A DNA stretch of 62,698 bases, the filler included, from Piptocephalis cylindrospora (lineage: Eukaryota): NCBI GenBank assembly GCA_003614145.1. It is 4 parts of 4 records of this genome, joined end to end, with 100 filler letters (N's around TTAATTAATTAA, not from the genome) between each part and the next. Parts side by side here need not be neighbours in the genome. Positions count along the whole stretch, not along the records: positions 15,720 to 31,337 come from KZ987890.1; 3 more parts are not named here. One strand, written 5' to 3'. Positions 14,013 to 62,698 of the stretch are shown in pieces. A model generated the notes under the pieces. It saw nothing but the letters and a program-made list of their open reading frames with translations, ran no database searches and was not told the origin of the DNA. A program made the position numbers and the translations under genes. Within the stretch, counting starts at the first letter, position 1, and each line of letters opens with the position of its first letter.

Positions 14013-14196
14013 TTAACTTTGAGAGAGGTAAGTTGGAGAGGGGCACAGGGGTGCGTTGGAGGAAAAGGAAGAGGAAAGAGAAGTTTGAGTCCTTGTGTTG
14101 TGGTGTGTGTGCAATTCTATAGTGATAAGGGGGCAAAGGATGACGGTGTGGGCCAGCGGCCTACAGCAACCGCCAAATCTTGGCTGTTGAAATAAT

Positions 14197-15119
14197 GGGA
14201 TAATATCAGAAATGCCCTTATTCTCTGTGGTATTTCAGAAATGCCACAATTCACGGATAACATCAGAAATGCCCCCCTCGTTTATGCCTGATGATACCAA
14301 GAATGCCCCTCTGTTACTTCAATTGTCGGGTGTGCTCCCCTCCCCACAGCGCCACCGCCTTACACTTTGCCTAAGGGGCGCAGCGGTATTTCTCACCTGC
14401 CCCTCCGCCTCTCATCTCAGGAGGGTAGAGAGAAATAAGAAGAGGGGCATCCTAGAAAAGGCGCGCTCTACAACTATCATCATATTTATCTCAAAGTGTA
14501 CGTTGGAGATACCAATATGACCGCTGGATAGGAATGATTTCTCGTCCTAGACAGTATGAGACACAAGTAGGGCGCACCATGCTTGCCTTCTATCCTTTGC
14601 CTCACTCCCATCCATGGCCCACCATTCTGCTCATATGCATGCTAATGCCAGCGGCAAGGCTTTAATAGTATCATTTTAATATAGTATAATATATGTTGAA
14701 TACTTGTCATTGCCACGCATCATTATCCCCATTAAAGAGCTGTATTTAACGGCCTTGTTGCCACCGTGTTGGATGCCCCTCTGCCTATCCCACTGAGGAA
14801 AATAAAGTGATTTCATCATCATCATCACCATCGTCATAAAAACATTATCTTAAAACGTTATATCTGTCCTGTCATTCTTAGTAGCAATAATGAAATGGTG
14901 TACTTGATAAAATAAGTCATAGTCGGTGGAGGCAAGGGTAAAGTATCAGTATGATAGGGCGAGAAGAGGGGGAAGGGAAAGTAGATCCGACAATTGTAGC
15001 AACAGAGGGGCACTCTTGGTATCATCAGGCATAAACGAGGGGGGCATTTCTGATGTTATCCGTGAATTGTGGCATTTCTGAAATACCACAGAGAATAAGG
15101 GCATTTCTGATATCATCTC
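14197..15119. mobile_element. Non-autonomous TIR element (MITE, Mutator-like ends), ~920 bp
   Basis: 14197-~14329 is the near-perfect reverse complement of ~14987-15119. Each arm has three tcagaaatgcc subrepeats. No coding capacity and no clear TSD. Confidence 0.85.
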
Positions 15120-15619
15120 AAAGATATATCAACACAGTCTGAAATCCCTATTTCCTCTCTGAATAGCACCAAAGGAAGATCCGAGTGATTAGGTACGAGG
15201 CGTGAAAGATAAGGTATTTACCCGAATCTAGGAAAAGGTTTACGAAGTTCATGAAAGCGTTGCTAGTATCATAATGTAGAGTGGGATGTAAACATAGACA
15301 TGTTAATCTAGCTGAGCAGGTAAGAGAGGACTAGCGGGGGAGTGGCTAGGCTAGGAAGCTCAACAGAAAGATGATAAGCTCAAGAGAAGGAAAGGGCGGA
15401 AAAGAGCACGAAACGTGATGGCCTTTCCCTTAGGAAGCTCTGCTCTAGGTACCCTGTAGCGCATTATCTTGCTCCATACCCTCACGCAGATCTATTCTCT
15501 TCCGGACTTGCTGAGCGAGCCGATTGGTTCAGCCTCTCGAAACAATTTTATTCTTGAAATTCTCCCCCCCCCCCCTTCTTCTGGTGGGCATTCATTGGAT
15601 CCACCCTCTCATCGACTCT

Positions 15620-15719
15620 NNNNNNNNNNNNNNNNNNNNNNNNNNNNNNNNNNNNNNNNNNNNTTAATTAATTAANNNNNNNNNNNNNNNNNNNNNNNNN
15701 NNNNNNNNNNNNNNNNNNN
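15620..15719. other. Artificial scaffold linker N44-TTAATTAATTAA-N44
   Basis: Six-frame-stop 12-mer in the centre of an N run. Identical linkers at 31338-31437 and 47019-47118. Confidence 0.97.
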
Positions 15720-17600: not shown

Positions 17601-18279
17601 AAGTCGTTCCCATTTACACCCTTCTACCACGTTGCTTTAACCCTGGAGATATAACCCTGGAGATATAGGTTATAGTAGTGGACGAGGCACTTTCGCGGGA
17701 AAACAGGCTTGGGGCCCCCTAACTTGGGCTAGTCATCTACATCGTGCCATCAGCTCTAAAATGTACATAATTTGGGACGCCCAGGATATGAAAGAACACG
17801 TCATTACTGAACGTACTGTTTACCACATTATAGCTCATGGGCGGTGGCCTTGTGTAATTGGGACAATGTCAAGGGGAGAGAACAAGGATATATAAAAAGA
17901 CACGTTGTTGCGGAACAAGTCATGTGCTTTATAACCGTTTCCAAACTTGAAATCATGCCCACTGGTGCAGATAACATAAACATTACAACCCCCATTCTCT
18001 TTTAATTATTCATAAGGATGTGTTTAGCCCTGAGATATGAAACTTCATCGGAGTATCTAGAAGAAGTACAGAACTTAGCATTATAGACCATCATGATGCA
18101 TGACGCCTTCATGGGTGATATCTCCATGGGCTTTTCTGGCGAGTCCATGATTTTCTTAGTCAGCTTTTCAGAAGCTTCCATCTCTCTCTTACCACCCCAA
18201 TGACCGCCATCCGTAAATGCTTCCATAAGCTGTAACGCGAGAAAGGCCAAAGTGGTTTGACCTCTGAGCCGGACACATA

Positions 18280-19723
18280 CAGCGTTTGTGAAAATAAACC
18301 GATATTTATACCGCCATGGACCCTTTTCTTCGTCATTCTTCTTCTGGGAAATCATTCTTCATGAAATAAAGTACACTGGAAACGTGAGAACCACACGATC
18401 AGGGATAGCTGAAGTACTTTTAAATGGAAAAATAAATCGTTTCAGGAATTAAAACTTTGTAAAACAAATTGTGTCGGCACTGTAGTGAAACAGGATCAGC
18501 TTGAAATACACTTTTCTTAATCTCATTATAAAAACTAACATATTAGGAATCAAGCTATAAGAACATCAGTATAAGAACCAGAGCTCTTCATTATCCCCTA
18601 CACCACGATCTCCTTCAGCTCGCTCAACCATGAAAGCCATACCAAAAGAAACAACTATGCGCATCAAGATGTTCCTGGAGAAGGGCCAATCAGTGCGCCA
18701 AGTGGCCATCAAGGCCAAAGTAGGATCATCTACGGTAATGAGGAGGCGTAAGGAGCTGGGTATCGTGGGAAAACCTAACCCAGGTGGCCGCCCAAGGCTT
18801 CTAACCCCAAGAGAAGAACGGATGGCCGTCCGAAATGTAACTACAACACGCGGGGGATCAGCCAGGAGGGTCGCAATGCAGGTTTCCGCCGATCGTGGGG
18901 AACGCTTCAGTGCTGAGATAGTGCTTTGTACCCTTAAAAGGAGAGGATTGAGAGGCAGGAGACCTGGAGATGCCATCCATGACGGAAATGTAGTATCTAT
19001 AATTAAGTTTGGAGGAGGTAATGTGCTGATTTAGGGCTGTATTCCTGTTTATGGGGTTGGTAGACTCCATAGGGTTGGCGGGAAAATGGATGCGGACGTA
19101 TACTGTGATGCATTGGAAGAAAGCTATCTATCATCCCTGGATGACTGGGGCCTTGGTGAAGAGGATATCATCTTTCAGCAGGATAATGATCTAAAAATAC
19201 CTTTACTAAGGCCCGGAGCTGGCTTTCCTCAAATAGGATCCAAGTCCTGGAATGGCCTTCTCAGTCTCCAGACTTGAATCTTATTGAGCGCCTTTGGGGA
19301 CACCTAAAGAGAAGCCATTAGCCACCTACAAGAGGGCCCCCGCTAGTATCAATGCTCTTTGGATTCGGGTGAAGTCAGAATGGGATGGGATCCCTCAAGA
19401 TGTAGTCCTGAATCTCATCGACAGCATGCCTTCAAGAATTCAGGCCGTCCCAAAGGCAAAGGGTGGACGTACTGGGTATTGATGGTTGGCAATGGAATTT
19501 GCAAAATCTTGCATCGAAAGTGTGCCGGTGTAGTCTATATCGTAATTTCTTGCTTTCTGCAGTGGGTTATTGAGTAATTTAACATTGCTTTACTTACTCT
19601 TGATTGCATGATTCATGCACATCTAGTGTACTTTATTTCATGAAGAATGATTTCCCAGAAGAAGAATGACGAAGAAAAGGGTCCATGATGGTGTAAATAC
19701 TGGTGTACTTTCACGATACACTG
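18280..19723 (+). mobile_element. Tc1/mariner (IS630-Tc1) DNA transposon, 1444 bp
   Basis: ~100-bp TIRs (18280-18378 vs 19625-19723) starting CAGCG/CAGTG. TA at 18278-79 and 19724-25. Transposase relic inside. Confidence 0.93.
18630..19482 (+). pseudogene. Tc1-type transposase pseudogene
   Basis: HTH region SVRQVA..GGRPRLLTPREER, then KFGGGNVLI*GC, IFQQDND and WPSQSPDLNLIERLWGHLK. Internal deletion of the first catalytic D region, a stop and frameshifts. Confidence 0.9.
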
Positions 19724-19919
19724 TATCATGACTGTTTGAAAAATCATAGATATCCCAACGGAAATGACTAGGGAAGATGATGGATGGCTATGTCCGGCTC
19801 AGTCTTAACCGTGGGCTGCATTGTATAATAAAAAGTTGTGTATGAGAAGATATGTCCCAAAGATCATGGTAAAGGGGAGGGTCATTCTCACTAGTAGCAC
19901 GCAAGCTGCTCATTCATTT

Positions 19920-22480
19920 TTAATCATCTCCACCGGAGGATAGATTACATTGGTCTCTCAAATCAATGAATAGCTCCCCCGAGAGCGCCTTTGCAAACAT
20001 ACCCCTGATGGAACACCGGACCATACAATCGATCCTCCGAAAAAGTAACCAAAGTTCCTTGTCAAACTTAGAGGCGGCATCCTTTACAAGACGCCTCTGA
20101 TGCCTCTGCATAAGGTCTACAAGGGAAATATAAGCAGGTAGATATTTCACTTGAGACCACACACCAGGCTTTACGTAATGGGACCGCAGCTGACCAGGGC
20201 GTGGGAAAAGGTATCGGAAAAGCTTCCACCAAGAGCTGATTTTCCTTCTGCTTGATACATGCCTTTCTTGACGATGGCCAATGGCTTGACGGACCTGTTC
20301 CAGATTCCACTCAGTGATGATCCTAGTATCCGCGAAATCCTTCGCAGCATTGATCAGATCTTGCCGAAGAAGTTTGATGATCAGGCCGGCGATCACTTCA
20401 GGGGTCAGTAGCACACTACGTTCCACTTCTTTGTCATAATCGCCGCCCATCAGGTCCCGCATCTCCTGCTCACCGATTAAACTGTTCAGAGTTTCTTCCC
20501 TTCCTGCCTCATCACCACTCGAACTATCCCTACCCACCACACTTTCCTCTTCTTCACCGACCACATCATCCCTATCTAGTCTCCCTTCCTCCTCTTCTTG
20601 AATAACCGAACGACAAGGCAATGCCCACACAGAGAGCCAGATGACCTTGTCATGGGTAGTGTAGATCCAGCCAAAAGTCTCAATGGATTTCCCGAGGTTA
20701 AGAGACCTGGAATCCGTGCGATTCGGGTTTCCATACACATACCTTCGATCATAGGAAAAATACTTTCCTCGATAAAACCCCCGAAATAGAGAGGCGAGCA
20801 GTCGCATAAAGGATTCAGTACTGGGATCCGGGGGAAGGCCTTTCCTCTCGAGAGCCCGATCGACCCGCTCTGCTCCATCCCTTACGATCCATAGGCAGGA
20901 AGCCTGGAACCGGGCAGCAGTCAAGGATGGCAGAGCAATAAAATACTCTTGATGGTTTGCCTTCACGGCTTCACACTCATTCATGAATTCCTCCAACCCA
21001 TCTACTCGAAGGAAACGGTCCCCTGTAATCCTTTGCTCGTATCGGGACCCCCACGACATCATGCGACCGTCCTCTAACCCACCGATTAAAACCTTCCATG
21101 CGTCTTTCATCTTCATGTTGGACCACTTCATATCGTGCCATTGCAATCTGCTCATCCAATGATCTCTCGCCCCAGAGATAAGCTCCTTGTCAACTTGATA
21201 GACTTGCGCATACGCAGGATCGGGATGCTCCTTTCCTACCTCAACCACGTCCCGCCCACCTGGGCCAACAGTCATCCCAGTTACGTCCTTTGTCAACCAC
21301 CACTCGGCCAACTTTGGCTTTAGGTTCATGCCGGTCTTCATCTTCAGACACCCTTCTCTTTTCCATAAAAGGTGAATGGGACCATGGGCGGCAATGGCGA
21401 CTTCCGAAGGCATAAATTCAACTGCAATGTCCACTTGCATTCCCTTCATCCCCTCATCTCCAAAGGCGCCGGCGTACCGCCTCATCACTGTGTCCTTCCA
21501 CGATCGTAGACCCTCGGGATTGAGGAGTTCACGGTACGGCACCACTGTACCGCCTTTGACGCCCTTACACGCGGCATGGAAGAAGAAGCCGTTGAAGTGG
21601 GACTGGAGATGATCATCTTGATTGACGATGGATCTCATCTCCCTAGTAACACCGTTGACTTCGAGAGGTTGAAGAATATGACCGATCATCCCCTTCTTGT
21701 CATAGTCCCTGGCGTTCCGTGCGGTTGGCCTCAAGTGCTGAAGTCGGTTGGGGCCAAGGAAGCGGCGACATGCTGGAAGAACTACAGACTCATACCACAA
21801 ATCGAGGAGAGGTGTTGGTAGGTAATCCTGACCAGGGGGTAGGTACTTGGGGGAGAGGGAAGGGAAAATGGCATGGATAGTGATTGTGCCTCTTGTTTTC
21901 CCAAACAAGCAGTGAGGAGTTCTGCTCATTGGAACTCTCCCCGCCTGGTCAACCTTTGGGACAAATTGATGATTCCCCACAATATTCGACCCTTGATGAG
22001 GATTTGGAAAAATGTGAATGGGATCTTGGGCCGGAATGTAATCGAGATTCCACAGGACAGAATCAACGTCAATGAAGGCATCCAGCTCGGGAACTTGAGG
22101 TAATTCGTGTGATTTGATCTCTAGTCTCCGCGGCACATGGCTATATCCTACCCGGTGACCATAAATTACCCTTTCGATGTCCAGACAACTAATCGGACAA
22201 GCGACCCCTTCTTTAAATGAGAAAGACTTCAGAAAGTCCTCGAGGAATTCAACCTCTTCACTTCCTTCCTCTCCCTTTTGCAGTACAGGAGGTGCACTAA
22301 ATTGTGTCAACAAAGGCTTTTGAGTACCACTACCATATACCCTAGTAGCTACTTTTATCCATAAGAAACCTAGCCCACTTACTGTAAGGGAGGAGGCACT
22401 ATCTCTGCTATTGTGGAGTAGATGGCTTGGTCTCTGGTGAGAGAGCTCACAGCACTACAGTACTTTCTTTCTGGAGGCAT
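19920..22480 (-). CDS. Intact ~824-aa orphan protein, probably mobile-element-derived, with Rep_trans-like motif order
   Basis: 797-codon open frame. Predicted phase-2 intron 22297-22382 (gtaagt...ttgac..tttag) joins in frame to an ATG at 22480 behind a CT-rich leader. Function not established. Confidence 0.75.
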
Positions 22481-23957
22481 ATGGTGATAATGATGGTATG
22501 AGCAATGTATCAACACCCGCTTCTGCAGGAGATGATCAATTTGAGGACGAAAAGGGGGAGAAGGGAGCAATAAAGAATTGAAGGGGGGGGGGATGGTGAA
22601 GCAATGAGGATGTAGTGAATGTCACGCTTTGCCAAAATAATGAAAGGAGAGAGTGTGAGTGGGGAAGTGAAAACAATAAATAAGGAAAGGAAGTAGTGAG
22701 AAGGGGAGAGGGGAAGAGGACGAGGGGGGGGGGGGGTGATGAGGTGGTCTGAGCAGATAGGGGTATGCGTTTTGCACGGTGACGTTCGCGTGATAGAGCG
22801 CGCCTTCTCCGCCATGTCCACAGACGATGGTGGAGGGTGGCAAAGTTTAGACCCGTTTCTGAGCGGAATGCGCACCACGGATGTGGCTCTTCCGACATAC
22901 AAAGGATGCAGCAGGGTGAGGGAGTAGCATGTGGCTTTATAAGTGCGGAGAGTACGTGCGACGCGACACGGCCCTTCTATTGTTTTCCTTGAATGCGTCG
23001 GCTGATGATATTATGATATTGTTAGGTGTCTGGCTGACTATCAGGGAAGGGTCAGTAGTAAAGTGGTTCGAAAGTGGCTTGGTCAAATGTATTGATGGAC
23101 ATTCAAAGTCCAGCCCTTTATAGGGAGCCATCCAGGAGGGTTATTCCTTATATTTAGGACTATCTTGAAATAATCCTGTGCGGCTAGATCTTTCACTTTA
23201 TCTGTCCATGAAGCTTGTTTCCTCATTTCTGCTCCTGATTTTTGTCTCTGGGGGGTTTCACATAGGCATCCCGCTCATACGGCTCACGCAATGACTTCCA
23301 AACTATTACAATGTATATTCCAGATAGTCTACTGGTACCAATAACATGCAGAAGCATAACAGTAGCTATTTCTCTGATCTTAGTTACGCCTTCCTGGCGA
23401 TCCACTTTCGCTGCTCTTGGAGGAAGCACTATCATCCGATACGCCCAGGGAAAAATAAGGGATGATGCAGGGTAATATGTGAGGCCTTGCCTATCAGTTT
23501 CCATGTTGATCACTTGATTTAATATTTGAAGTTTCCAGAACCATCATCATTTTAAAAAGCCACGCATTACACTAATAATACTGGAGATACAGTACATTAT
23601 AGCAAACGGACTTATGAGGGTTCCAACCACCATGACTACCATCCAACCGATGATCCATCCGCTGTATATATTCCGTTTCTCTTTCACTGTGAAATGCCAA
23701 GAATGAATCCCTTTGAGGGACAATGCACTAAAACAATGGGATCATTGATAATCCTTATCGTAGCGCAACCGCGAAAATAAGCCAGAACGATACATCATGT
23801 ATTCTCTTAGTGGGTTATTCCCGTAATGGGTTAACTCAATCGCTACATGCAAACAGGTACGAGGATGTGTAGTGAAACACCACGAGAACAGAAGATCCAG
23901 CATGATGACGTCCCGAAATATTCATCAAGTGATGGATAATCAATGGTAAAGCGAGGC

Positions 23958-26900
23958 TTAGGGGCGTTCCTTGGACGTGCGCTTGCCAAACATTCTCCGA
24001 AGCTTGTTACGAATCTTAGCCGCCCACTTTACTTTAGCCGGTTTGACCTATTAAATTAAGGGACGATGAGAAGTGAGAGATCAGCAGCCAGGAGACAATT
24101 GAACCTCCATCGCACTCCTTGTATACATTGGGGTCATTGAGGCTAGAGCTCTTCATGACGCCATGAAGAACAAAAAGTAATTGGATAGGTCCAGAGAGAA
24201 TGTGGAATACGACCAAAGTGAAGCGGGCGGGACATATAGAGAAGGATGAGTAAAAGTTTCGTATAAAAATTGCGCAAATGTTCAATGATGATCGATGAAA
24301 CAGGATCTGTGTGGTGAGCAATTCTCCATCGTTAACTTACCGGTGAGAGTACTGGCTTCACCTCTTCCAGCCTGAAGTGCGTCTTAGCTAATGAACTTTG
24401 AGCTTTCCTTATCTGCCCCTATGTGAGAAGGTTTCGTGGGCGAAGTTATCGTTAAGCAAGGAGATATTGGTGAGCTTGACATGAGAGGAAATGGGGCAAG
24501 AAACCCTCCTTTTATCCGAGATAAAAGGCCACATCCCTACTCAAAGCCTCTGCAGTGGGGGATGATTGGATAGCCTATCTCAATGTTCTCACTAATCGAC
24601 AATCGATAGCACCATCCAATTTGCCACCCAGTCACCATGTGCTTAGGAGAAGCTCAAATTTCAAAACTAACCTGTTGATGGATAGTTGACTTAGCCCGAG
24701 CATCTTGCTCACGCGCCTTCTGCGCCCTGGCCATTTGCTAAATGTAGTGTAACAATAAGGGTTAGTCTAAGATACTCCCTACCTCAAGAAATATATCCTT
24801 CATAGCTACTAATTCATACCGCAAGTAGGTCGTCACCAAAGCCATCATCATCATCATCATCCTATATACAAAAGGTTAGTAGACATTACCAAGGCAGAAG
24901 AGTGGCAATTTAGAGGGATTTAGCCCCTCAAGAGACATAGAAGGACTTTAAATGAAGAGGAAAATACGTACAAAGCCATTCTTCTTCCTTGTATTCTACC
25001 AGATTGGGAAAGAGTAGGTTGTTGTGTGTGAGAAGGAGAGTAAAATATCTAGTTAATTTCTCAGCCCCTTCTTCCACTCGACTTATGCGTCAATCCTCGT
25101 ATAGGCACAGAAAGATTTACCTGTCCAAGCTCGTTACCAGTACTAAACTTATCGTTGGTCTGTATGAAAATGGTAAAGGAATTGGATCAAGGTTAATTAA
25201 CCCATGCTCATGGGGTATCTCCGAGACTGAAGAATAATCATCTCCTTTGAAAAGACCCCGTGCCCCTACGCTTCACCTACCGAATGTGGTTCCTCGACTA
25301 GAGTTTTCGACATTCTCCTCTTGGGGAACTCCTGAACCTAATAAAGATTCCCGAAAGATGAGCAATTGTACACAGCCTTTAATAAAGGAAGCGCCAACAT
25401 GGGTCCATGATGCCAGGTCTGCGTGGTGAGTAACTCTCTATCATTAACTTACCGGTGAGCGTACTGGCTTCACCTTTTCCAGCATGATGCGCGTCCCAGC
25501 TAATGAACTTTGAGCTTTCCTTATCTGCCCCTATGTGAGAAGGTTTCGTGGGCGAAGTTATCGTTAAGCAAGGAGATATTGGTGAGCTTGACATGAGAGG
25601 AAATGGGGCAAGAAACCCTCCTTTTATCCGAGATAAAAGGCCACATCCCTACTCAAAGCCTCTGCAGTGGGGGATGATTGGATAGCCTATCTCAATGTTC
25701 TCACTAATCGACAATCGATAGCACCATCCAATTTGCCACCCAGTCACCATGTGCTTAGGAGAAGCTCAAATTTCAAAACTAACCTGTTGATGGGTGGTTG
25801 ACCTATCCTGAGTATCTTGCTTACGCGCCTCCTGCGCCCTGGCCATTTGCTAAATGTAGCATAACAATAAGGGTTAGTGTAAGATACTCCATTCCTTTCC
25901 CTATCTCAAGAAATATATCCTTCATAGCTACTAATTCATACCGAAAGTAGATCATTATCATCATCATCATCCTATACAAAAGAGATTGGTGGAAATGGCC
26001 AAGACAGAAAGTGGTGGGTTGGAGTTGTTTAGCGCCTCAAGAGGCATATAAGTACTTTAAATGAAGAGGAAAATACGTACAAAGTCATCCTTCCTTCTCG
26101 TATTCTATCAAGTTGGGAGAGTAGGCCATTGTTATGTGAGAAATATGATAAAATATTTAGCTGATCCCTCTACTGTACGTACCGAAGAGTCCCCTGAAGA
26201 GCCTGTAGAGCTTTCCGAGTTGGGACTTGTACCCTGCCTTCCTGTAGTAGACAAGGGGTTTCCTGCTTCCCTGACAGCCTACGGGAGAAAGAAAAAAAAT
26301 GATTGATGAGAGACTCCAGGAGCAACGACGAAGGGTATGGCGTATCATGTAGCATTGCAATAAAGGGAAAGTGGCATATGCACATATTGCTTATAGCTCG
26401 TACGGCTGCCTTGCATGCTTTCCCTTTCCAACATTTCTCTTACCTCAGGTGTTCCGTATTTTTTCTGGCTCTTGATAAGGGAATTCTCGATGTCATTTAC
26501 CCACTAGAATGAGTAGTAATAAAGAGGGATAGATCAATAGTATTGCGATTAGATTTGATTACTTGCCATCTAGAAGTCATAGAAATAAGCCAAAAGACAA
26601 GGTACCGTCTGTATCTCTGGGTCCTTGTTGAGGGTTCGCAGGCGTCCAAGATCCTCGACGAGCGCAGAATATCTCTATAGTTACCGTAGTGTTGATTTAA
26701 GTGATGATAGCTTCTTCTATGCGCAATTTTTTTCTGTGGGCTTGGAATACTTACCCATTGTAAAAAATCGGCACGCTCCTCAAGCTATCCAGGGGAGCGT
26801 GGCATTGATGGGGTAAGTGTGGTTAACATGAAGGATAAAAAAGAGCGCAATGCTCTCATACAACACTTACGTAGTTGATCTTATCCTGTAAGGAAATGAT

Positions 26901-29717
26901 AACGATATTTGCGTCGCATGGGGTTAATTGGTTAGAGTGTCAGGAATATTTATAGCCACTCTCATTAACAAGCTGCACGGACCAGACCTCCCCAGAGGCA
27001 TCGCACTGAAGTATCCCTCAATATTTACCGGTAAATTGTCAACTTCTCTTTCTAACTCCTTTGATTCCTGGAATGAAACCGGAAAGTAGATAGGGGAAAC
27101 GATGAGATTTGTCACAGAAGAGGATAAAGCATTTCGCGCATTGTCATCAGGGTGTAGCTCTGATTAAGACGAAGGGTGGACTTACATATTTAATACGATC
27201 CATTTCGATGGCTCTCTTTTCAGGGATTCTCAGCTATAGCGCGAGTGAATTGAGGGCGTTAGCCTATGGGTAAAGTTTCTTCTGGCCCATGATAGGAGAT
27301 AGCTCGGCTATTGTTTGAGGTAGTCATCATGCTGTGGGAGTTAGATGGCCTTTGAGAAAATGACCATCTTTTCCATGCCCGCTTGACCTGATTTACATCG
27401 CAGATAGGATAATTGTCTATAAAGCATCTTACTTCATCGTCAGTGGGTCTTGTAGGCCATTCCTTCGGTAGTGGTTTCTTTGTACGAATAATAGCCTATA
27501 GTTTGTGCAGTGGAAGAAATGAAAATGCTATTATTAAATTGAACGCAGGGGAGGCAGAAGCTATTTCTACACTGTCCTAGTGGCGATCCTGCCTCTCACA
27601 AAATCCGCATAGGGTCCATTTCCAAATTAACACAATTCCCTTAACGTTATTGGGGCTATATCATTACTTACGGTATAGAAGGTGAGCTTCCAGATGATAT
27701 CAGATGCCTTGAGCTTCAGTGGTGAAATATCCTACAATAATAAAATGACAAAGATCATTAACGGGACAATTCCAGTGGTACTGGTACGACTGAGACATCA
27801 CGGAGTATTCATGCGAACATCCTAGATAGCTAATTATTTCAATTTGGCATTTACCTCATCGGGCAATTTTTGCCTAATAGCCTTTGCGAGGAACCTAACA
27901 CCTTCAAATGCTTGCTAAGGGGGCATGGGTGAGAAATTTTAGAGGTTTTGAAGGATTGAAGGATGATTAGTTATCCAACCAGTCGGAAAATCCGGGAAGC
28001 GCAGATATTCAATCTGTAAGATGCGCCAAGCGTATCTATCCATACTCAGAATTGGGAAATGACTTACATAACTGGCCCTTCTAATACTTCCTTCTGAGCG
28101 GACCTAAGATATTTTTTGGAGATATCAAGGGTATTAATGAAGGCACCCTTGGAAGAAGACAGTGAAAATACAAATAGTGATGTCTAAGAATTGTGAGGGG
28201 GCTGACATGCGCTCTTACATTAGTATTGGACCGTTCATCCTTCTGGATAAGCGTAATTCCCACAGAGAAGCATATGAAGGTCAAATGGTGAATAGTAAAT
28301 GCCGTTGGGTTGGGTTAGATCGAGGGAAGGAGATGGATATAATGAGATCAAGAGCCTAAGATTACTGATAGATAATGTACTTCCCCTCCGCCTTACCACA
28401 AGCCTGTTGAACCAGGATTCGCCAATCTCGACAGTCTATTTTTTAACGAGAAGTGACAAAATTTGATAAGTAATTGCTTTTGATCATAACGCCTTGAGTT
28501 GGGTATTCACTAGGTAAGCTATCTTCGATGTAACTTACCTGCTTGGCGTCCTGTTTTAGAAGGTGCTAAATAATGGTTCAAAAGATGAAAGAGTATTAAT
28601 TGGAGTAGTCTACTTCCCCATTCCATCCAATGAAATTACCCTATTGCGAGCAACAAAGTCAGGATCGGTTGCCTTTTCAGATTTCTGAATATTATTAGGG
28701 GCGGTACGAACGATCACCTTGTAAGAGAATGACCAAATTTCATCGATAAAAGCGTTCCAAAAAGGATACGACATAGGAGGGTTCCGAGGGAGTTAAAGTA
28801 GGTTAGGTAGGCAGAATTAACTGTAATTTATCCTGAAAACTAGGCTCATAAAGCTCCTCATCCAAAAGGCATCCTTACCCTATCGGGCTGTTTTGGAGTC
28901 ATTTTGTAGTTCGGCGTGGTGGCCGGTACGTAATCGGCGTCTATAAATGCGGATGCACGGTTAATAAGTACTATTGATGTAACCTCTATGTAATAATTGA
29001 AGAAAGTGGCAAGAGAAATGCATACTTTTTTTGACCGTCTAATCGAAAGAGGATGCAGATGAAGGAGGATGATTAGGGATCCGATTGGGATGATAGTAAT
29101 GGGATTGTACACGTTATTAAACAAAAGGTCCATCCGGCTGATTAGTACTACGATAATTGCAAATTTTTACGCTCTGAAGAGATATGGATCCTTACATTCA
29201 TTCCTGGAATGGCGGTCCGGGGATACATCAGCAGAGAAAGGGAGGGTGATCGAAGATGAGTCATGTTGTTATTATTATTAGGGGATGAGATAAGCATGAG
29301 CAAAAGAAAGTGTTATGGTTGGGCGCGGGAATCCACTCATGAAGGCCATGCCATTGATGTCTCCCTATGAGCATTGCACTTTTAAAACAGCACTGCTTGC
29401 AAAACTAACGCATTCGGTTCACAGAGATTACGCAAAGCTACATCATCGGATTGCTTTTCACTTACTTAAAGGGAGAGTGGGCGTAGACGCGCCTATATTC
29501 ACGGGATGGTTAGCGGCTAAATCAACGAGTGAGTGATGGAGAGGACGATATACATAGATCAGTAGATTAGAGCCAGCATTGAGAAGCTTGTGGTTTAGGT
29601 GTAGCAAGAAATGACATGATGAGATGACTTACTGGTACGCGTAGAGCCTGGAGCAACCACATGTTGAGGAAGGAAGGTGAGGCAGGCAACGCTAAGAATA
29701 ACGATGATGAGTCTCAT
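23958..29717 (-). CDS. 31-exon micro-exon gene encoding a ~518-aa secreted orphan protein
   Basis: Manual GT-AG model with an open frame throughout. Exons: 29633-29717, 29466-29516, 29196-29203, 29026-29038, 28879-28940, 28640-28717, 28539-28565, 28397-28435, 28219-28242, 28068-28103, 27855-27914, 27672-27731, 27433-27495, 27186-27233, 27029-27067, 26871-26885, 26755-26784, 26606-26674, 26444-26503, 26183-26278, 26081-26104, 25942-25971, 25784-25849, 25453-25530, 25281-25337, 25121-25159, 24972-24995, 24820-24861, 24672-24737, 24341-24418, 23958-24047. Signal-peptide-like start MRLIIVILSVACLTFLPQHVVA. Confidence 0.8.
24332..26165. repeat. Direct duplication of a ~720-bp four-exon module (24332-~25055 vs 25444-~26165)
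   Basis: Offset is 1112 bp. Core 24386-24681 is identical to 25498-25793 and the flanks are diverged. Confidence 0.95.
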
Positions 29718-29945
29718 GTTGATTGGCGAAGAAAGCAACAAAGGGTTTGAAGAGAGCAGTAGGACAGAGGAAGAGGCAGGAGAGAGAGAAAGGAGTTGAA
29801 GAAGGGTCTCACACAGTGAGAATCTGAGGGTGGATGGATGGGAAGATGTGAATGATTGCGCCAGGCAATGAACCACTTTAACGAGGTAGATGGAAGGATG
29901 GGGTCGCACAAGGGGGGGAGAGAGAGGAGGGAAGAGAGGGATAGA

Positions 29946-30029
29946 GAGAAGGAAGAGGAGGAAGGAGAGAAGGAAGAGGAGGAAGGAGAGAAGGAAGAGG
30001 GAGAGGGGGAGAAGGAAGAGAGGGGGGAG
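29946..30029. repeat. 21-bp purine tandem repeat x4 (gagaaggaagaggaggaagga) upstream of the micro-exon gene
   Basis: Units at 29946, 29967, 29988 and 30009, progressively degenerate. Confidence 0.85.
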
Positions 30030-30339
30030 AGTGGGTGAGAAGAAAATACCATTTATGGGAAAGTTGCCGTGTCGGTGACCCTGTTTTAGAGGGGGATCCT
30101 CAGTATTGCAGCTGATGGGATTTCTATCTGTCTCCTACAGCTTAAGCGGAGGGTCTGGATATTCACTTGGTCCACTGGCGACCATCAACAAAATAACACC
30201 CAATTAAACGCAGCACATTAACTGACGGAGACGAAATGGCAATTGCCGCCAAATTTACTCTCTATGGTATTCCCATCACTAAATCAACTCTGCCATGTAG
30301 CTCCGCTCAAATAACGGCCGTGTATTCGCCATGACACTT

Positions 30340-30900
30340 CACGGCCATGTAAGGTAATTCGGAGTTTGAGTCCTCATCATACTAGATAAAGCTCCATAGT
30401 ATTCAGCGGTAAATCAGGCGGTAGCCTGCTCCCCAGCACCTTGTGGCAAAAGCAGCTGGCCTAAACAACCTTATTCAAGCCTTTCTCAATGGGGCGTATT
30501 CAAGAATCAGCATTATGGCTCATCTTCCACCACTCAGGCACCGGGAGTGAAGGTCTGATCAGCCATCTATATTATACCACGGAGCTCACAGGATTAGGGA
30601 AGGGATGATGGCATTGTCCGGCCTTTTATCTCCTGGTATTTCTGTCGTCCGGTTGCAACGTGCCTTCTCTTTCAATTCAGCTTTTCGAACAAGTGCTCCA
30701 GGAACGTTGATAACCAATCTCAGGTCGACAAATCAAATAGCTCTACATACATCTCGTTCAAGGGTGTGGGACACTGCTAGCCTCTTCAATTAGGAGCTCC
30801 GATACAGACGTATGCTTAGAGGTGAAGGAGCGACCCTGAAGGTCAACATAGGGCACATGCTCATATCGGAGACGGAGTTTTAAACCCTGAGTGAACGAGA
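30340..30900 (-). pseudogene. Possible decayed protein-kinase-like sequence
   Basis: Minus-strand pieces in kinase order: IPGDKRPDNAII (HGDIKPDN-like), MAD, LEYAP, CWGAG, ELPY. Stops and frameshifts throughout. Confidence 0.3.
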
Positions 30901-31337
30901 ACTTAGCCTGTTTTCTACAATCCTTTGGTGAGGCGCACAGTAGCCGATATTAACTTGAATTTCATTACAAATCGTCCAAGAAAGGGGTTGGATCATTCAT
31001 TTCCCATCAGATGAATACGAAAAAGAGGGCCATCACCTAGGAAGACGCAACAGGAATGTACTCTAATCAGATGGCAACCCTTCTTTATGCACCGTCTACT
31101 TTGACGCTAGAAGAGGCATATTAGGCTATGATAGTGTTGATAATTGATCCCAGACAAGCCACCTTGGATCATTCTTCTACTGGGTGAATCGAACAGAAAA
31201 CAACAAAAAGTGTACTGGAGGAGCGAGAGAGGAAAGAAGGGGAAGGGGGGGAAGCGGTTGTGTATGGACAGAGAGGAGAGATGGTATGGTATCAACAAGG
31301 ATGTGGAAGGGAAAGGAGATCATGAGAACAGAGCTAG

Positions 31338-31437
31338 NNNNNNNNNNNNNNNNNNNNNNNNNNNNNNNNNNNNNNNNNNNNTTAATTAATTAANNNNNNN
31401 NNNNNNNNNNNNNNNNNNNNNNNNNNNNNNNNNNNNN
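31338..31437. other. Artificial scaffold linker
   Basis: N44-TTAATTAATTAA-N44. Confidence 0.97.
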
Positions 31438-31512: not shown

Positions 31513-34262
31513 GGCGGCGGGCGGAAAGAAGAAGAATAAGAAGGCCGTCAAGATGAACCTGAACGATTTTCTTGCCGACTCGAGTAGGTGATTCATGGAT
31601 CGCACGCGTAATGAAAACATTTTCCACTGACTCACCTCCACTACTTTCTCTTAGCCACCGGTACCAACTGGGCTGATGAGATGGACGAGCTTCCTTCTGC
31701 ACGTAAGTCTTTCCTTTGTGCTATCTCTTTGGTAGATTGCCCTCATTCAACTCATCCTTCCTCTTCCTGGTTAATAGCCGCTGCTGCCTTTGGTGGTGAT
31801 GTGGGTGGTGATAGTCGATCCCGTGGATTCGGGTCCGAATTCTGTACGTATCCCTCGCATGTGTCACGAATGGTCCTATCCTCACTCATACCTTATCGGA
31901 TCATCGTCCCTGATGCATAGCTCGCGACTTTGCTCCCCGTGGTCCTCAGGTCCTCCCTACCAGCCCTCCATTCACGGCTTATGTTGGAAACCTTCCATAT
32001 GAAAACCTCACTGATGAGTCCCTTACCGAATTTTTCACCGGATGTGCCGTCAAGAATGTTCGCATTATCCGGGATTTCAGTGATCAGCCCAAGGGCTTCG
32101 GCTACGTTGAATTTGAGGATGTCTCCTCTCTCGAAAAGGCCGTTGCTCTTTCTGGTAGCCCCTTGAACGGTCGAAACCTCCGTATCAATATTGCCGAACA
32201 ACGTACGTGTGCTGCCATCCTTTTTTGTTCATATTAAACTCCATCTGTTCATGGAACTCATCCCTTTTTCTCCCCGTGCTCTGCAGCCAAGACGGGATTT
32301 GGAGATCGGGGTGCTGGCCCCGAAAGGTCTGAAACTGATCAGTGGCGTAGGGCCGACTCGGGTTCCTCCACAGATCTTCCCAGGTCTGGGAGCACTGGCG
32401 GCTTTGCTCGAAGGGACTCTTCCTTTAGTCAGGGTGGCGACCTTGGCAGGGCTGATTCCAGCGGTGGTTGGAGAAAGGCCAATGACTTTTCCCCTCAGGA
32501 TGGTCCCACTCCCCCTGGGTCCGCTAGGTCTCCTCGTTTCGGCTTTCGTCGCAATCAGGAAGGAGCTTCCCTGGCTGAAGACACCTCGGATTGGCGTCGG
32601 GACCGTCCAGCCTCCAGGTCTCCCTCTGTGGGCCGGGATATTTCCCGAACCCAGTCGGGTAGCACAGTGGAACGGGGGAGCCGTATGGGCGGTGGAGGCT
32701 TTTCCTCCCATCACACCGGTCCCTCTGACACCACCTGGGGTGGCGGCGCTTTCACTCCTCGACCCGCCGGTCGATCTCCCTCTCGGGACTTTGGTTCCCG
32801 TGATCGGTCTGGGGGCCGCGATAGGTCCTGGGGCCGTCCGGGTCACGCCAAGGATACTTCCTGGGGCGGAGGCGCCTTTACCCCCCGAGGCCGTCGGGAG
32901 GAGCGATCTACGGAGCGGGACACCTCTCGGGACACCTCCTGGGGTGGTGGTGCCTTTACCCCCCACTCTCCTCGTCCCCCCCGTCATGAGGGTGGCTTCG
33001 AAGCTGATGAGGAACGGGGCCGTGGTCCCCCCCGGACCAAGGATACCGAATGGAGCGGTGGCGCCTTCTCTGGCAAGGAGTCTTTTGACCGTAGGCGTAG
33101 CCTGAGGGAAGAGGGTCATGTTGAGGGCGAAGAGGAGACTGATGAGGCTCCCAAAGGCAAGAGCGAGACTGAGCCCACTTGGAGGAGACCCATTGTTGAG
33201 GGTGAGGAAGAAGAGGGTGAAGAGGAAGAGGAGAAGAAGGAAGCTAAGAAGGGCAAGAGCGAGACTGAATCCACTTGGAGGAGGGCCACTGCCGAGGAGG
33301 ATGAGGAGAAGGATGAGAAGGAGCATGAGCACGGAGAGAAGAAGGAATCTAAGAAGAGCAAGAGCGATACCGAATCCACCTGGAGAAGGGCTCCTGCTGA
33401 GGAGGAGGAAGAGAGCAAGGAAGAGGAAGACAAGGAAAAGAAGGAGGATGAGAAGAAGGAAGATGAGAAGAAGAAGGAAAATGAACTTATGGAGAAGGAC
33501 ACCTGGAGGCCTTCGGGCTCATCTCCTTCCAAGTCCACTGGCAGAAGGAATTCCCATCAACCTAAGAACACCTCCTGGAGTGGTGGTGCCTTTTCCCGTG
33601 CCGCCCCCTCTACCTCCCCCGAGGGTGAGGAGACGATTGAGGAGGGTACGGAAGACAAGGAGAAGGGGGAAAAGAAGGATGAGGAGAAGGAGAAGACCAC
33701 AGCCTCCAAGAATACCAGGTCCAACTCGGCCTGGGGCAAGCGTGCCTCAGGCACTGACCGCACCATGTCTGACAAATGGGAACGTGGTGTGCCCCTCCCT
33801 CCCGCCTCCCCCCCGCCTCCCCAGAAAGCCGAGGGTAAGGAGGAGACCGCTGATGCCTCAGCCACCACCGGTGGAGCACGAGCGGACCGACCCAGTCGAG
33901 GCCAGGGGAACAAGACCTGGGGAGGAGAGGATCGGGCCTCCAGATCTGACTGGGGCAGAGGAGGAGCTTCTTCTTCCCCCCGTCCCGAGGGTAATGTCTG
34001 GGAGCAAAAGAATAAGGCCGCTGCCACCAATGCCCCTGCCAAGGAGGACCGCACCCTTGGAGATTGGGGCAAAGCCCGGGCCGAGGCCAAGCCCCGCTCT
34101 GAAGATGTGGAGGCTCCAGTGAAGAAGGATGAGGATAAGCACGAAGAGAAGGGATCTGAGGCAAAGAGGCCCGAGAAGAGGTCTGAGGAGAAGAAAGCTA
34201 CTGCTGCCCCCAGTAAGGCTGATACTGAGGATACTTGGAGGGTAGTGACGAGGAAGAAGTAA
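31513..34262 (+). CDS. TIF3: Translation initiation factor eIF4B (5' start lost in gap) with long repetitive C-terminus
   Basis: KKKNKKAVKMNLNDFL|TNWADEMD, PTSPPFTAYVGNLPY, RRM RNP1 KGFGYVEFED, LNGRNLRINIAE. Continues into ORF 32628..34262. Confidence 0.85.
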
Positions 34263-40792: not shown

Positions 40793-42305
40793 GATGATAA
40801 AGTGTAGGGCGGTATTGAGAAGATGGGGAAGAGAGATGGGAAGAGCACCAGGGAAGGGCTGATCTGCCGTGTCAAGTGCGCTCACATGTGGTTCCTGTTA
40901 GATCGCTACTGTGAGTGTATGTGTGTGTGTGTATAGTCGGATATGGGTGGGAAGGCCTTGTGTGGAGCTTTACTCTGGAGGCTTTACAGCAAGGTCAATC
41001 GCTTGAGGATGGCCATAGAATGATTTCTGGAGTGGCTCTAGGTTAGATTTAGAGAGTAAACTCTAAGAAATTATATCTTTATGTTTGGACAAATTTCCAG
41101 AATAATGTACTTGATTAATGAGCTTTAAGACAGGGAGTAAATAAATTTTGGATATACAAACACCTGGTCACATGCAACATCTCATAATAAACACTTAAAT
41201 GATCATTGACTCATCCATCTATAAACTGCGATTTCACAATCTGAGCGCTTTAAAGAGTTACCCAGCCTCGTGAAAATCAATGGTACCAAAGGACACCGAA
41301 TGACACAGGTATCTAAACTGATCGACCATCATTTCCTATTTAAAAGAACCCCTTGTATCCAACTTTTCGCTGCAAATCCAAAAGCATTGACATGACCATG
41401 ATGTCATAGCAATCGGACATTTGACGATTCGTGCTGGATCCGGATGATTATAGAAACCCTTGTGCTTTTGCATGGTAGCCTAGCCTAGCTCTCATCACTT
41501 AAGACTCATGACTATCATAGTGCATCATAATGAACTTAAAAAGCCCTTGCTTGTAACGCGAGACAGCCTGATGCATCCGCATGATCGTTCTGGCTAGGAT
41601 AGTAAACCTAAGAAATTGCTCCAGAGCCCTTCTGCGGAGCGGGCCCATCTTCGCAAGCCATACTTAGCAACTCCTATCCAATTTCTTCCTCTTTAGTAGC
41701 ATGGTGACATCAGTAGCCTTCTCACACATGGCAATGGGGATGAGGCAATTGAGAGGAAAAGCACCTCTCCTCAGTGGCCCTCTCATCAGAAGCACGTGCT
41801 GTTCTTGGACCATATGCATCACCTCAGTATTTTGAGGGCGCTCATCCTCTGCCCAGGCAATTAGCTGGATCCACAATTCTGCAACTCCGCACGCACTCAC
41901 CTGCTGTCCAACCCTGATTGTTTATCCGTTGTTGACTAGGAAGGTAGTCCTCAATCTGGCCTGATCCATCTGGTGAGATGAACTTTTCGGCCATCTCTCA
42001 TAGGTCTGTAAAGCTCAATAGTGATGTAAGACGTCGGGAGCGCAGGGCTTGTCACTCTCGCTTCTTTTGGGGCGTCAATGGAGAGAGCAGTGACTCTGGA
42101 GGGAGGGGTGGAGGTGTGAAGCATTGCCCACGCCCACCGATATTGACCTTGTCCACCACCGCCCCCAGAAAGTATAAGTAAAAGGCTTTCATGTCCATGT
42201 TCCCTTCACCATCCCTATAAACTTCACTTGACCCTTCCTTCTTTCCTCTTCCCACCACCACCACCGGCAAAACAATAACCTACGCTTCCCACTACGCTTA
42301 CTACC

Positions 42306-42479
42306 ATGGCTTTCACTGCTTCAGACATCCTCAAGATTGTTGCCGCCGTCCTTCTCCCTCCCCTCGGAGTCCTCTTGGAACGAGGATGTGGGGCGGACCT
42401 GTGCATCAATATCCTCTTGACCATTCTGGGTTATATCCCTGGAATCATTCATGCTCTTTATATCATCTTGAAGTATTAA
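42306..42479 (+). CDS. PMP3: Pmp3 plasma-membrane proteolipid, copy 1 (57 aa)
   Basis: MAFTASDILKIVAAVLLPPLGVLLERGCGADLCINILLTILGYIPGIIHALYIILKY*. Below the ORF-track cutoff. Confidence 0.95.
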   Translation: MAFTASDILKIVAAVLLPPLGVLLERGCGADLCINILLTILGYIPGIIHALYIILKY

Positions 42480-43516
42480 TCACCACCACAATCCTAACCA
42501 ACCAGGAGATAGCACTAGGCTCCCGGATGCTATAACATCAGAGTAAGGGGAGAGATACTTTTTTTTTTGCTCCGCCCCGCCTTTTCTCTTAGGCCTTTAC
42601 GTATGATTCCTAGTCATCACCTCAGAAATATACATGCTTTGTCGTCGCTGTCGTTCAGTATCCTTGAATAGCTTTGTCAATCATCTAGTATGCAGTGAAG
42701 GCATTCAGTGTACAAAGAGGGCAGCCGAGATCGGAGGAAAGTAGTAGTGTCGCAATGACGACGGCGTTGATTACTTGTCGAGTTTGACGTGCTGGAATGG
42801 GCAGTCTTAAGAAATGAGCTCACCCTATCCGAGACATGCGAGGCATTTCGTTTGGGTCTTCCCACTCATCAAATCAATGTTGGCGCGAGGAAATCTATAT
42901 CGTTAGACAACCGATCTGTCTTAGATTCCTTCCTCTCACATTTCCCTCCGCACTGGGGACACACACATACTGACATCTCCCAGAGTCAGTCTAGTTGGTG
43001 TCAGAGGTCACACCGAGCCAAGAAAGCTTAGCCCTGAAGGAAGGGTGAATCCTACGAGGTTTCATACATGTGTCGGACCTCTATTGGACCCCGCTTTGAT
43101 TCAACTGCTGCTCCCTTTTTCCTCAGAATCAGATAGATGTTCTCTTGAACCCTTTCTCCCTCCTTGATGGCGGTCTTCTTGTCCAAAGAAAGGGGAGATA
43201 CAAGGAGAGCACCCTTCCCCCACACACTCCTCAAGTCCCGCATCAGTCTCTTCTCCTGTATCGCCTTTCTCATCCATCTCAGGAAAGAGTTTCAGCCTGG
43301 CCATTCAGAGCATGTGCCTCTGTATAGGGACCCATGAAGAAATGAGTATATAAAGGAACATGAAGATTGGATAGCTGAGTTTGCACCCAAGGCTACACCA
43401 TTATCTTCCATCTTCCTTATTCCTCTTCTCCATTTACCCACCTAGCCCCTTTCTTTGCCATCCATCACCCCACTCCCAATAACCCTCTTCGCTAACCCTC
43501 TTCAACCCTCTTCACT

Positions 43517-43690
43517 ATGGCATTCACTGCTTCCGATATCTGCAAGATCATCTGCGCCGTCATTCTCCCCCCCATCGGTGTACTCATGGAGCGGGGATGC
43601 GGAGCAGACCTGTGCATCAACATCCTCTTGACCATTCTGGGTTATATCCCCGGGATCATCCATGCTCTGTACATTATTTTAAAGTACTGA
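43517..43690 (+). CDS. PMP3: Pmp3 plasma-membrane proteolipid, copy 2 (57 aa)
   Basis: MAFTASDICKIICAVILPPIGVLMERGCGADLCINILLTILGYIPGIIHALYIILKY*. Confidence 0.95.
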   Translation: MAFTASDICKIICAVILPPIGVLMERGCGADLCINILLTILGYIPGIIHALYIILKY

Positions 43691-47018: not shown

Positions 47019-47118
47019 NNNNNNNNNNNNNNNNNNNNNNNNNNNNNNNNNNNNNNNNNNNNTTAATTAATTAANNNNNNNNNNNNNNNNNNNNNNNNNN
47101 NNNNNNNNNNNNNNNNNN
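47019..47118. other. Artificial scaffold linker
   Basis: N44-TTAATTAATTAA-N44. Confidence 0.97.
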
Positions 47119-51272: not shown

Positions 51273-51527
51273 ATGAAGCTCACATCCATCCTATTCATCT
51301 CCGCCATGCTGGCCATGGCTCTTACTGTTGCTGCTTCTCCTGCTGGGGAGGGAGGTAATAAGAAGGGTATGAAAGGAAAAAATAAATCGGCTGATCCCAT
51401 GCCAAGGGGAGATCAAACTTGCAACTTCGGTTGTCATGCTGGTTATGGGTGCGCACCCAATAATACCTGCGTTGGTATAGAGTGGTATAACGCGTGGGCA
51501 GCGAGGAATGGCCAGTCCTTCATCTAA
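51273..51527 (+). CDS. Small secreted Cys-rich protein (84 aa)
   Basis: MKLTSILFISAMLAMALTVAASP signal peptide, Lys-rich spacer, then C-x3-C-x5-C-x5-C. CT-rich leader and acc-ATG context. Confidence 0.8.
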   Translation: MKLTSILFISAMLAMALTVAASPAGEGGNKKGMKGKNKSADPMPRGDQTCNFGCHAGYGCAPNNTCVGIEWYNAWAARNGQSFI

Positions 51528-62310: not shown

Positions 62311-62643
62311 GGCTATACTTGTCCAACGAGGGGGTAATCAGGAGTGAAAGGATAAAGAGAAGAGGGAGGGGGGAGGGGAAAGAGAAGGAAAGATGGGGAA
62401 AGAGGATCAAGGTGATTAAGAAGGGAAGAGTAAGACGAGCGGACGACAACATCCGTGTATCCATCTTCCCTTAGTAGCTGTCATACATAGGGCTTCCCTT
62501 GTCAGTATTCCCCAACAACATCCTGGAGTTGTCTCCGGCATGACGCCTCCGTCCGTGTGTATATCTCTCCTACTCATCTGGCCCCCAACCATCACCACCT
62601 TTGTGCCACATTCCATTCAGTATGGACGGGTGTGATGTCTCGG

Positions 62644-62698
62644 CCCTGTTCCGTTTTATAGAATGCCTTTCGGACACCAACCACTGCTAGGGTACCCC
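62644..62698 (+). repeat. 55-bp inverted copy of PEX5 internal sequence 61959-62013 at the window end
   Basis: Exact reverse complement. Confidence 0.93.

Follow-up and report, generated by a model that had tools for sequence, protein, structure and literature searches.

Arrays of small exons that share one phase are known in genes for secreted proteins of flatworm and aphid parasites. The micro-exon genes (MEGs) of schistosomes encode a signal peptide and consist mostly of small symmetric exons (PMC4350168, PMC10526429); they are apparently restricted to platyhelminths, and their orthologs show a raised ratio of nonsynonymous to synonymous divergence (dN/dS) (PMC4350168). The bicycle genes of aphids encode putative effectors and have many small internal exons of phase 2 (bioRxiv 10.1101/2021.09.24.461719), and the KQY/KHI cassette effectors have many small same-phase exons in genes of 12–87 kb (PMC7495047). 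SP7-like effectors of arbuscular mycorrhizal fungi contain 6–11 tandem repeats with the motif Y[KR]Rx[AP]x[AP] (PMC11333574). Here we describe a gene of Piptocephalis cylindrospora, located within a 62,698-nt stretch of assembly GCA_003614145.1 (hereafter the window), in which a block of four phase-0 exons is duplicated and one intron is, as assembled, identical in the two copies. P. cylindrospora lives as an obligate, biotrophic parasite of other fungi (PMC6784888), and haustoria are formed by mycoparasites of the Zoopagales (PMC10386755).

23958..29717, minus strand: whole gene model of 31 exons with a coding length of 1,500 nt (499 aa) and introns of 74–293 nt; one terminal stop, otherwise open

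The gene resembles schistosome MEGs in coming from a parasite and in holding 81% of its coding sequence in phase-0 exons, and the signal peptide of MEGs may have a counterpart in the hydrophobic leader encoded by exon 1. Most of the coding sequence also lies in symmetric exons of ≤81 nt, a MEG criterion, as 28 of the 29 internal exons are of this size. A MEG rule also calls for exons of ≤36 nt to make up 75% of the coding sequence; here such exons (11 of the 29 internal exons) hold 17%. In addition, the median internal exon is 42 nt whereas MEG exons are mostly 15 nt, introns are 74–293 nt compared to 0.1–5 kb (up to 4 kb centrally), the protein has 499 aa compared to up to 189 aa, and a folded helical domain is predicted. 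Protein searches revealed no homology to a MEG family and matched only the protein itself and a paralog from the same species.

Like the aphid bicycle and KQY/KHI genes, this gene would encode a putative secreted effector, its numerous short internal exons all share a phase, and its sequence has diverged too far for standard homology searches. The phase is 0 rather than the phase 2 of bicycle genes. Bicycle proteins carry paired CYC motifs, which are absent here, there being no cysteine after the leader. The gene is also a compact fungal gene of 5.8 kb, unlike the 12–87 kb of KQY/KHI genes. We conclude that it belongs to neither the schistosome MEGs nor the aphid bicycle genes. As with SP7-like effectors, the source is an early-diverging biotrophic fungus, and the protein has a candidate signal peptide, basic stretches and repeated modules of hydrophilic character; however, there are two modules of 66–70 aa with four exons each, and Y[KR]Rx[AP]x[AP] is absent from the model. 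As a general mechanism, a block of symmetric exons with its ends in introns is duplicated, and the copies then show a patch of identical sequence. The same mechanism appears to apply here, except that the apparent exon/intron paradox was inflated by a probable assembly overwrite. Literature listings and the opening lines of abstracts, which cover the field in part, contained no fungal phase-0 micro-exon secreted genes and no such Piptocephalis effectors. A study of mycoparasite effectors from 2026 with Piptocephalis among its subjects (PMC13188720) likewise has neither 'exon' nor 'intron' in its main text.

A block of four phase-0 exons is duplicated

The window consists of four contigs of ~15.6 kb each, joined by N spacers at 15620–15719, 31338–31437 and 47019–47118, and sequences facing each other across a spacer are not genuine neighbours. 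The gene is located in contig 2 (15720–31337). The contigs beside it contain eukaryotic genes (Cdc5/Cef1-like Myb domains and Skp1), and the GC content is 42.9% over the gene span compared to ~51% in contigs 1 and 3. Four of six sequencing runs (X1, X2, X3 and X5) were compared with the window as assembled contigs. X1 is a DNA run; X3 and X5 derive from one sample, and that both are RNA is a guess. The public protein that corresponds to the gene is P0001 (hypothetical protein, P. cylindrospora).

Self-alignment identified a single duplicated block, with the copies at 24301–25052 and 25414–26160 being 87.7% identical.

25414..26160, minus strand: right (5′) copy, exons 21–24 (26104–26081, 25971–25942, 25849–25784, 25530–25453); self-alignment and unique X1 contigs with 0 differences
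24301..25052, minus strand: left (3′) copy, exons 27–30 (24995–24972, 24861–24820, 24737–24672, 24418–24341); self-alignment and X1 contigs
25121..25337, minus strand: exons 25 (25337–25281) and 26 (25159–25121), unique, phase 0, between the copies; present in P0001

In the window sequence, the eight module exons encode the peptides given in the original prediction and have GT/AG borders. Its count for the last two module exons was also reproduced from the window letters: 15 of 144 nt differ, 14 of these changes being nonsynonymous and 1 synonymous. The length change in the second module exon (30 versus 42 nt) keeps the frame, as claimed. The first module exon, which had not been counted, contributes five further differences in 24 nt (3 nonsynonymous, 2 synonymous). 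The 253-nt intron, described as identical, indeed has no differences in the window, where the identical run extends over 296 nt (24386–24681), but the left copy in X1 differs in the 3′ 64 nt of this intron. The statement that the other introns are diverged is true unevenly, since 22 of 109 nt differ in one of them, whereas the other has a 10-nt indel and 4 differences in 82 nt. The first 27 and 37 nt (5′ ends) of these two introns are identical, which could reflect smaller conversion tracts or splice-signal constraint.

The spacer exons 25 and 26 have no clear homology to either flank, local alignment against the flanks being equalled in 15 and in 63 of 300 shuffles. This lack of a clear match led us to reject a tandem arrangement of 1,112-nt units placed head to tail. 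No older duplications were found among the remaining exons; the four module pairs scored 131–261 and the next best pair 34. A missed phase-0 exon within the 253-nt intron was also rejected, as a motif scan revealed none.

Both copies are resolved in the DNA contigs

The eight X1 pieces listed, from 11 aligned records, include two entry contigs at 23000–24512 (depth 150) and 24946–25624 (depth 213) and two exit contigs at 24652–24812 (depth 225) and 25764–25934 (depth 179). A shared contig of 199 nt, 25595–25793 (equivalent to 24483–24681), overlaps each of these four unique contigs by 30 nt and has a depth of 358, compared to 150–225 for single-copy pieces. Relative to the average over seven single-copy pieces this is a 1.91-fold depth, and the depths of the two entry contigs add up to nearly the same value (ratio 0.99). 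As each copy has its own entry and exit contigs and the shared depth is close to the sum of the entries, we conclude that the duplication is real and that both copies exist. The unique junctions and even depth led us to reject a false duplication. The original proposal that the gene grew through copying of a phase-0 exon block is supported.

The original prediction had called for a depth check over the identical core. Although the ~1.9-fold depth supports two copies, ~80 nt of this core differ in X1. The X1 left entry contig (contig 1; 4,838 nt, unbroken over 23000–24512) has 14 substitutions and 12 inserted letters relative to the window, all within one short stretch. The other seven listed X1 pieces have no differences from the window.

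24404..24482, unstranded: stretch where the left copy in the window repeats the right copy and X1 differs; X1 contig comparison

The left copy in the window carries the letter of the right copy at all 14 substituted places, four of which are in the last module exon and 10 in the 3′ 64 nt of the intron. With the X1 letters exon 30 stays open, while its codons 1 and 5 change from Gly to Lys and from Lys to Asn, respectively. Because 10 of the 14 substitutions are transitions, the YAG acceptor is kept and the 10 differences in 64 intron nt are comparable to the 22 in 109 of the neighbouring intron, the X1 differences look like natural divergence between paralogs. The depth of the bin 24362–24588 was 99.9, identical to the 99.9 computed from contig 1 alone, and X1 contig 4 is unbroken through the matching place in the right copy. 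Thus, no abundant junction of the window type is apparent among the X1 contigs. The explanation that we regard as quite probable is that the left copy in the window was overwritten by assembly for ~80 nt over 24404–24482. This stretch is preceded by an 18-nt identical anchor at 24386–24403.

An X2 contig exits the window at 29039 and continues at 30306–30332 on the other strand, inverted and 1.3 kb away, which identifies it as a chimera. Such inverted chimeras are known from whole-genome amplification, and this example nearby indicates that chimeric molecules occur in these libraries. The listed X2 pieces begin at 24802, so the overwritten stretch is outside their reach.

A second allele is an unlikely source of the 24404–24482 difference. 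The window and X1 would then represent two real alleles or nuclear haplotypes with tracts of 296 and 199 nt, respectively, and conversion would be ongoing and polymorphic. Amplified single-cell libraries can lose an allele, and it is biologically plausible for a conversion tract to end at the 18-nt identical anchor. Moreover, three of four sampled Zoopagomycota were not haploid, with the species unspecified in the available text (PMC6784888). However, there is no other difference in the listed X1 pieces (~6.6 kb) and none in the eight listed X2 pieces. A half-frequency allele should also break X1 contigs 1 and 4 at the junction, where both are unbroken, so that two haplotypes as a whole appear improbable to us. 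An error in the X1 contig accounts for the remaining probability.

Collapse of the identical core in the assembly, which the original prediction named as the outcome that would undo it, thus applies in part, in that ~80 nt of the core differ in X1. A broader collapse, in which the whole core is an artefact in both the window and X1 and the true introns differ throughout, is highly improbable. Part of the core already differs in X1 and contig building can merge small bubbles, but copies that diverge by ~14% would have few 31-mers in common, making merging impossible, and the depth of the shared contig leaves room for no more than about two single differences.

Probable gene conversion in the shared tract

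24483..24681, unstranded: tract common to both copies (equivalent to 25595–25793), comprising the last 10 nt of the exon and the 5′ 189 nt of the intron; X1 depth of 358 and shuffles

With the X1 letters, the 677 alignment columns of the block contain ~72 difference events. When these events were placed at random 200,000 times, no placement left a gap of 199, and the median longest gap was 41. A 199-nt window with ≤2 differences was found in none of 20,000 random placements. The most likely explanation for this identity is recent gene conversion between copies 1.1 kb apart. The conversion tract proposed over the intron is therefore supported as a homogenised segment, but it measures 199 nt rather than 296 nt and does not span the whole intron.

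Purifying selection on intronic splicing signals, or on intronic RNA that defines the small exons, would also produce identity, and the identical 5′ ends of the other two duplicated introns (27 and 37 nt) are in keeping with it. However, 189 intron nt with 0–2 changes, compared to 14% elsewhere, would be far stricter than short enhancers need, and there was no Rfam match at E ≤ 1 in 22500–31337. We regard this explanation as very unlikely.

Substitution counts in the module exons

The second module exon, which contains the indel, was left out of the substitution counts. With the window letters, the probability of at most one synonymous change among 15 under neutrality was 0.118, 0.079 and 0.052 for transition weights (kappa) of 1, 2 and 4, respectively; including the first module exon raised these values to 0.34, 0.24 and 0.16. 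With the X1 letters, the last two exons have 17 nonsynonymous and 2 synonymous changes (P = 0.17–0.07, dN/dS 2.6–3.6), and the counts become 20 and 4 when the first module exon is included (P = 0.38–0.17). There were 32–40 synonymous sites available. Over 12 variants of the test, dN/dS ranged from 1.4 to 5.8 and P from 0.05 to 0.38, with little power in either direction from one pair of copies. Nonsynonymous divergence was 15.2%, compared to 14.2% (41 of 289) in the intron outside the tract, a ratio of 1.08 (P about 0.45).

The original prediction proposed diversifying selection on the module exons together with homogenisation of the introns. The 17:2 count with the X1 letters points in this direction, as do a ratio of 1.87 when all intron sites including the tract serve as the yardstick (P = 0.02–0.03) and the raised dN/dS of MEG orthologs in the available text of PMC4350168. 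However, the ratio of 1.87 is inflated because the tract itself lowers the intron yardstick, and P remains at 0.07–0.17 for the last two exons and 0.17–0.38 with the first. The 14:1 count in the window is not significant (P = 0.05–0.12), and exon divergence matches that of the intron outside the tract. Diversifying selection is therefore not upheld, and we consider it rather doubtful. The contrast between changing exons and an unchanging intron is mainly a product of the conversion tract and the overwrite. Near-absent constraint on the tail fits the data, while positive selection is neither shown nor excluded.

Gene model and transcription

Exons were picked by hand from splice motifs and frame. 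Exons 6–30 are 25 consecutive candidate exons of 15–96 nt with phase 0 at both ends and account for the 81% of coding sequence given above.

29633..29717, minus strand: exon 1, predicted signal peptide (MRLIIVILSVACLTFLPQHVVAP), absent from the public model; hydropathy and a similar leader in the paralog P0003
28879..29492, minus strand: exons 2–5 (27, 8, 13 and 62 nt, mixed phases), Ser/Thr/Pro/Lys-rich linker, the least certain part; splice motifs and frame, not in P0001
26444..28565, minus strand: exons 7–19, all phase 0, helical domain shared with P0003; paralog alignment and AlphaFold2
23958..24047, minus strand: terminal exon 31, strongly basic (VKPAKVKWAAKIRNKLRRMFGKRTSKERP); gene model

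Pairing of donors with acceptors gave 28 pairs on the gene strand, of which 25 were phase 0 and open; the rest of the window gave 17 such pairs among 128 (p = 1e-14), although motif pairing of this kind does not capture long exons elsewhere. Another count gave 25 of 27 on the gene strand and 1 of 12 on the opposite strand. P0001 was found with a 48-aa reading frame as the query, as one protein among 47 candidates. All eight module exons are among the 25 exons of the 31-exon model that it contains, and exons 1–5 and 9 are absent from it. P0001 supports the splice sites and not the DNA; the same assembly may be behind it. The gene model of the original prediction is supported by the open 31-exon frame, the match to P0001 and the pairing of splice motifs.

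Exon 9 (28219–28242, minus strand) has 24 nt, phase 0 and good splice sites, with no counterpart in P0001 or the paralog alignment. It is a possible optional cassette.

The depth of X3/X5 was 1,000–2,300 over 29614–29800 (minus strand), the region of exon 1, and 2–4 just downstream. Such depth is a hint of transcription at the 5′ end, while splicing of exon 1 to the rest of the gene is unsupported; the signal could reflect a short transcript, a priming artefact or a paralog. The blanks left by X3/X5 contigs over exons 6–31, and by X2 pieces over the left core, carry no evidential weight.

The protein, its paralog and the predicted fold

Judged from hydropathy, strong hydrophobicity in the protein is confined to the part encoded by exon 1 (Kyte–Doolittle value 2.25; best after residue 30, 0.85). 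A search with the 40-aa exon-1 frame returned nothing at E ≤ 1. A search of 1.84 billion proteins identified P0003, from the same species, as the sole other relative (E = 5e-6, 24% identity over 164 aa). P0003 begins with a similar hydrophobic leader, followed by a Ser/Thr/Pro linker and the same helical domain. The similar leader and linker argue that the true gene would have a signal peptide missed by the public model. The 499-aa model has no cysteine after residue 23.

A model of exons 7–19 from a two-sequence alignment (AlphaFold2) was all-helical, with a predicted template modelling (TM) score of 0.78; a full-length single-sequence model scored 0.26 and was not used. Because the long helices of this domain span exon borders, we expect that its exons would be mostly constitutive. 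A Foldseek search with the helical domain gave no match at E ≤ 0.001. VIA-align matched the domain to many three-helix bundles that are unrelated to one another, the best with a Z score of 11.0 (80 residues aligned, root-mean-square deviation 2.2), and domain residues 1–85 were barely covered. Pfam gave nothing above the cut-off for P0001 (2 weak matches) or P0003 (none), and a sequence search of the PDB gave a single match (E 0.42). In the ESM Atlas neither protein had a match by features, and by structure the TM score normalised by query was ≤0.43. Among metagenome contigs, 274 pattern matches included no confirmed related locus, although introns would defeat such a search. The duplicated module belongs to the tail of the protein, which is charged and of low complexity, and lies beyond the region in common with P0003. 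From hydropathy, the paralog and lifestyle, the gene is likely to encode a secreted protein of this mycoparasite.

Proposed history of the locus

Taken together, we favour the interpretation that a real duplication of four phase-0 exons lies in a gene of ~31 exons likely to encode a secreted protein, and that the identical intron is the likely result of a 199-nt conversion combined with an assembly error. We hold this combined reading to be probable. Since exons 6–30 are all symmetric, copying could be neutral with respect to frame, and a block of ~750 nt with intronic ends may have been copied 1.1 kb along with the frame intact. This event would have produced two acidic-helical-basic modules in the C-terminal half. 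The copies would then have drifted to ~14–15% divergence in introns and at amino-acid-changing sites under weak constraint, with no need for positive selection. A recent intrachromosomal conversion of ~200 nt between the copies would have followed. Finally, the assembler or an amplification chimera presumably joined the left to the right copy through the 24386–24403 anchor, overwriting ~80 nt. As for function, the protein may act like an effector, either haustorial or secreted, in which the helical core is conserved and the tail is modular and changes fast.

Several points weigh against this interpretation. In addition to the ratio of 1.87, the dN/dS point estimates with the X1 letters are above 1 (1.4–3.6). 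The evidence for secretion and an effector role comes from hydropathy, the paralog and lifestyle only. The motifs for the splice test were set after the gene's sites had been seen, making it partly unblinded. The contigs of X3/X5 contain no splice junction (no joints are listed), and two high-depth ones, each of 154 nt, pass the exon-1 donor unspliced by 13 and 19 nt before they exit, a pattern at odds with splicing there. All comparisons are with assembled contigs, in which rare variants are dropped and small bubbles can be merged, and which are compatible with a minor allele of the window type. Within the tract, depth permits up to about two merged single differences. X1 is also possibly the source of the window itself and hence no independent strain.

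The impression of racing exons around a frozen intron mostly dissolves into a conversion tract and an assembly error, which calls for caution with repeats in fragmented assemblies. Piptocephalis may have independently evolved a micro-exon effector family, a fungal counterpart to the MEGs and bicycle genes, in which phase-0 arrays encoding secreted proteins would diversify by block duplication, conversion and exon skipping, and which annotation would truncate and secretome surveys would miss. We put this forward tentatively, and one gene plus one paralog of unread exon structure are not yet a family. If true for an obligate haustorial mycoparasite, this would be a third, convergent origin of same-phase small-exon arrays. 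It would also offer a structure-based route to effector candidates in Zoopagomycota, where the predicted signal-peptide exon of this gene is absent from its public model.

Other features of the window

An open frame of 844 codons (19923–22454, minus strand) lies 1.5 kb downstream of the gene and has no Pfam match; its exact sequence is absent from the protein collection. Our guess is that it is possibly a transposon gene. An element at 18277–19726 has terminal inverted repeats of 105 nt (89.5% identical) with TA-CAG ends and contains a 157-codon frame (18561–19031) with no Pfam match. We take its pattern to be that of a decayed Tc1/mariner element. Further inverted-repeat pairs are located at 14185–15134 (141 nt, 94%), 48519–49673 (66 nt, 91%) and 61959–62698 (55 nt, 100%). 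These could be elements like miniature inverted-repeat transposable elements, and the pair at the contig end could alternatively have arisen by fold-back during amplification.

At 51273–51524 (plus strand), a single reading frame encodes a small protein that has four cysteines and a hydrophobic leader. Its exact sequence is absent from the protein collection, and it is a candidate for an unannotated small secreted protein. A direct repeat of 173 nt (42303–42475 and 43514–43686, 82% identical, 1,211 nt apart) is probably a tandem pair of small genes. The region 32700–33600 (plus strand) is GC-rich, repetitive and coding-like, with repeats of 30 and 96 nt (families D7 and D8).

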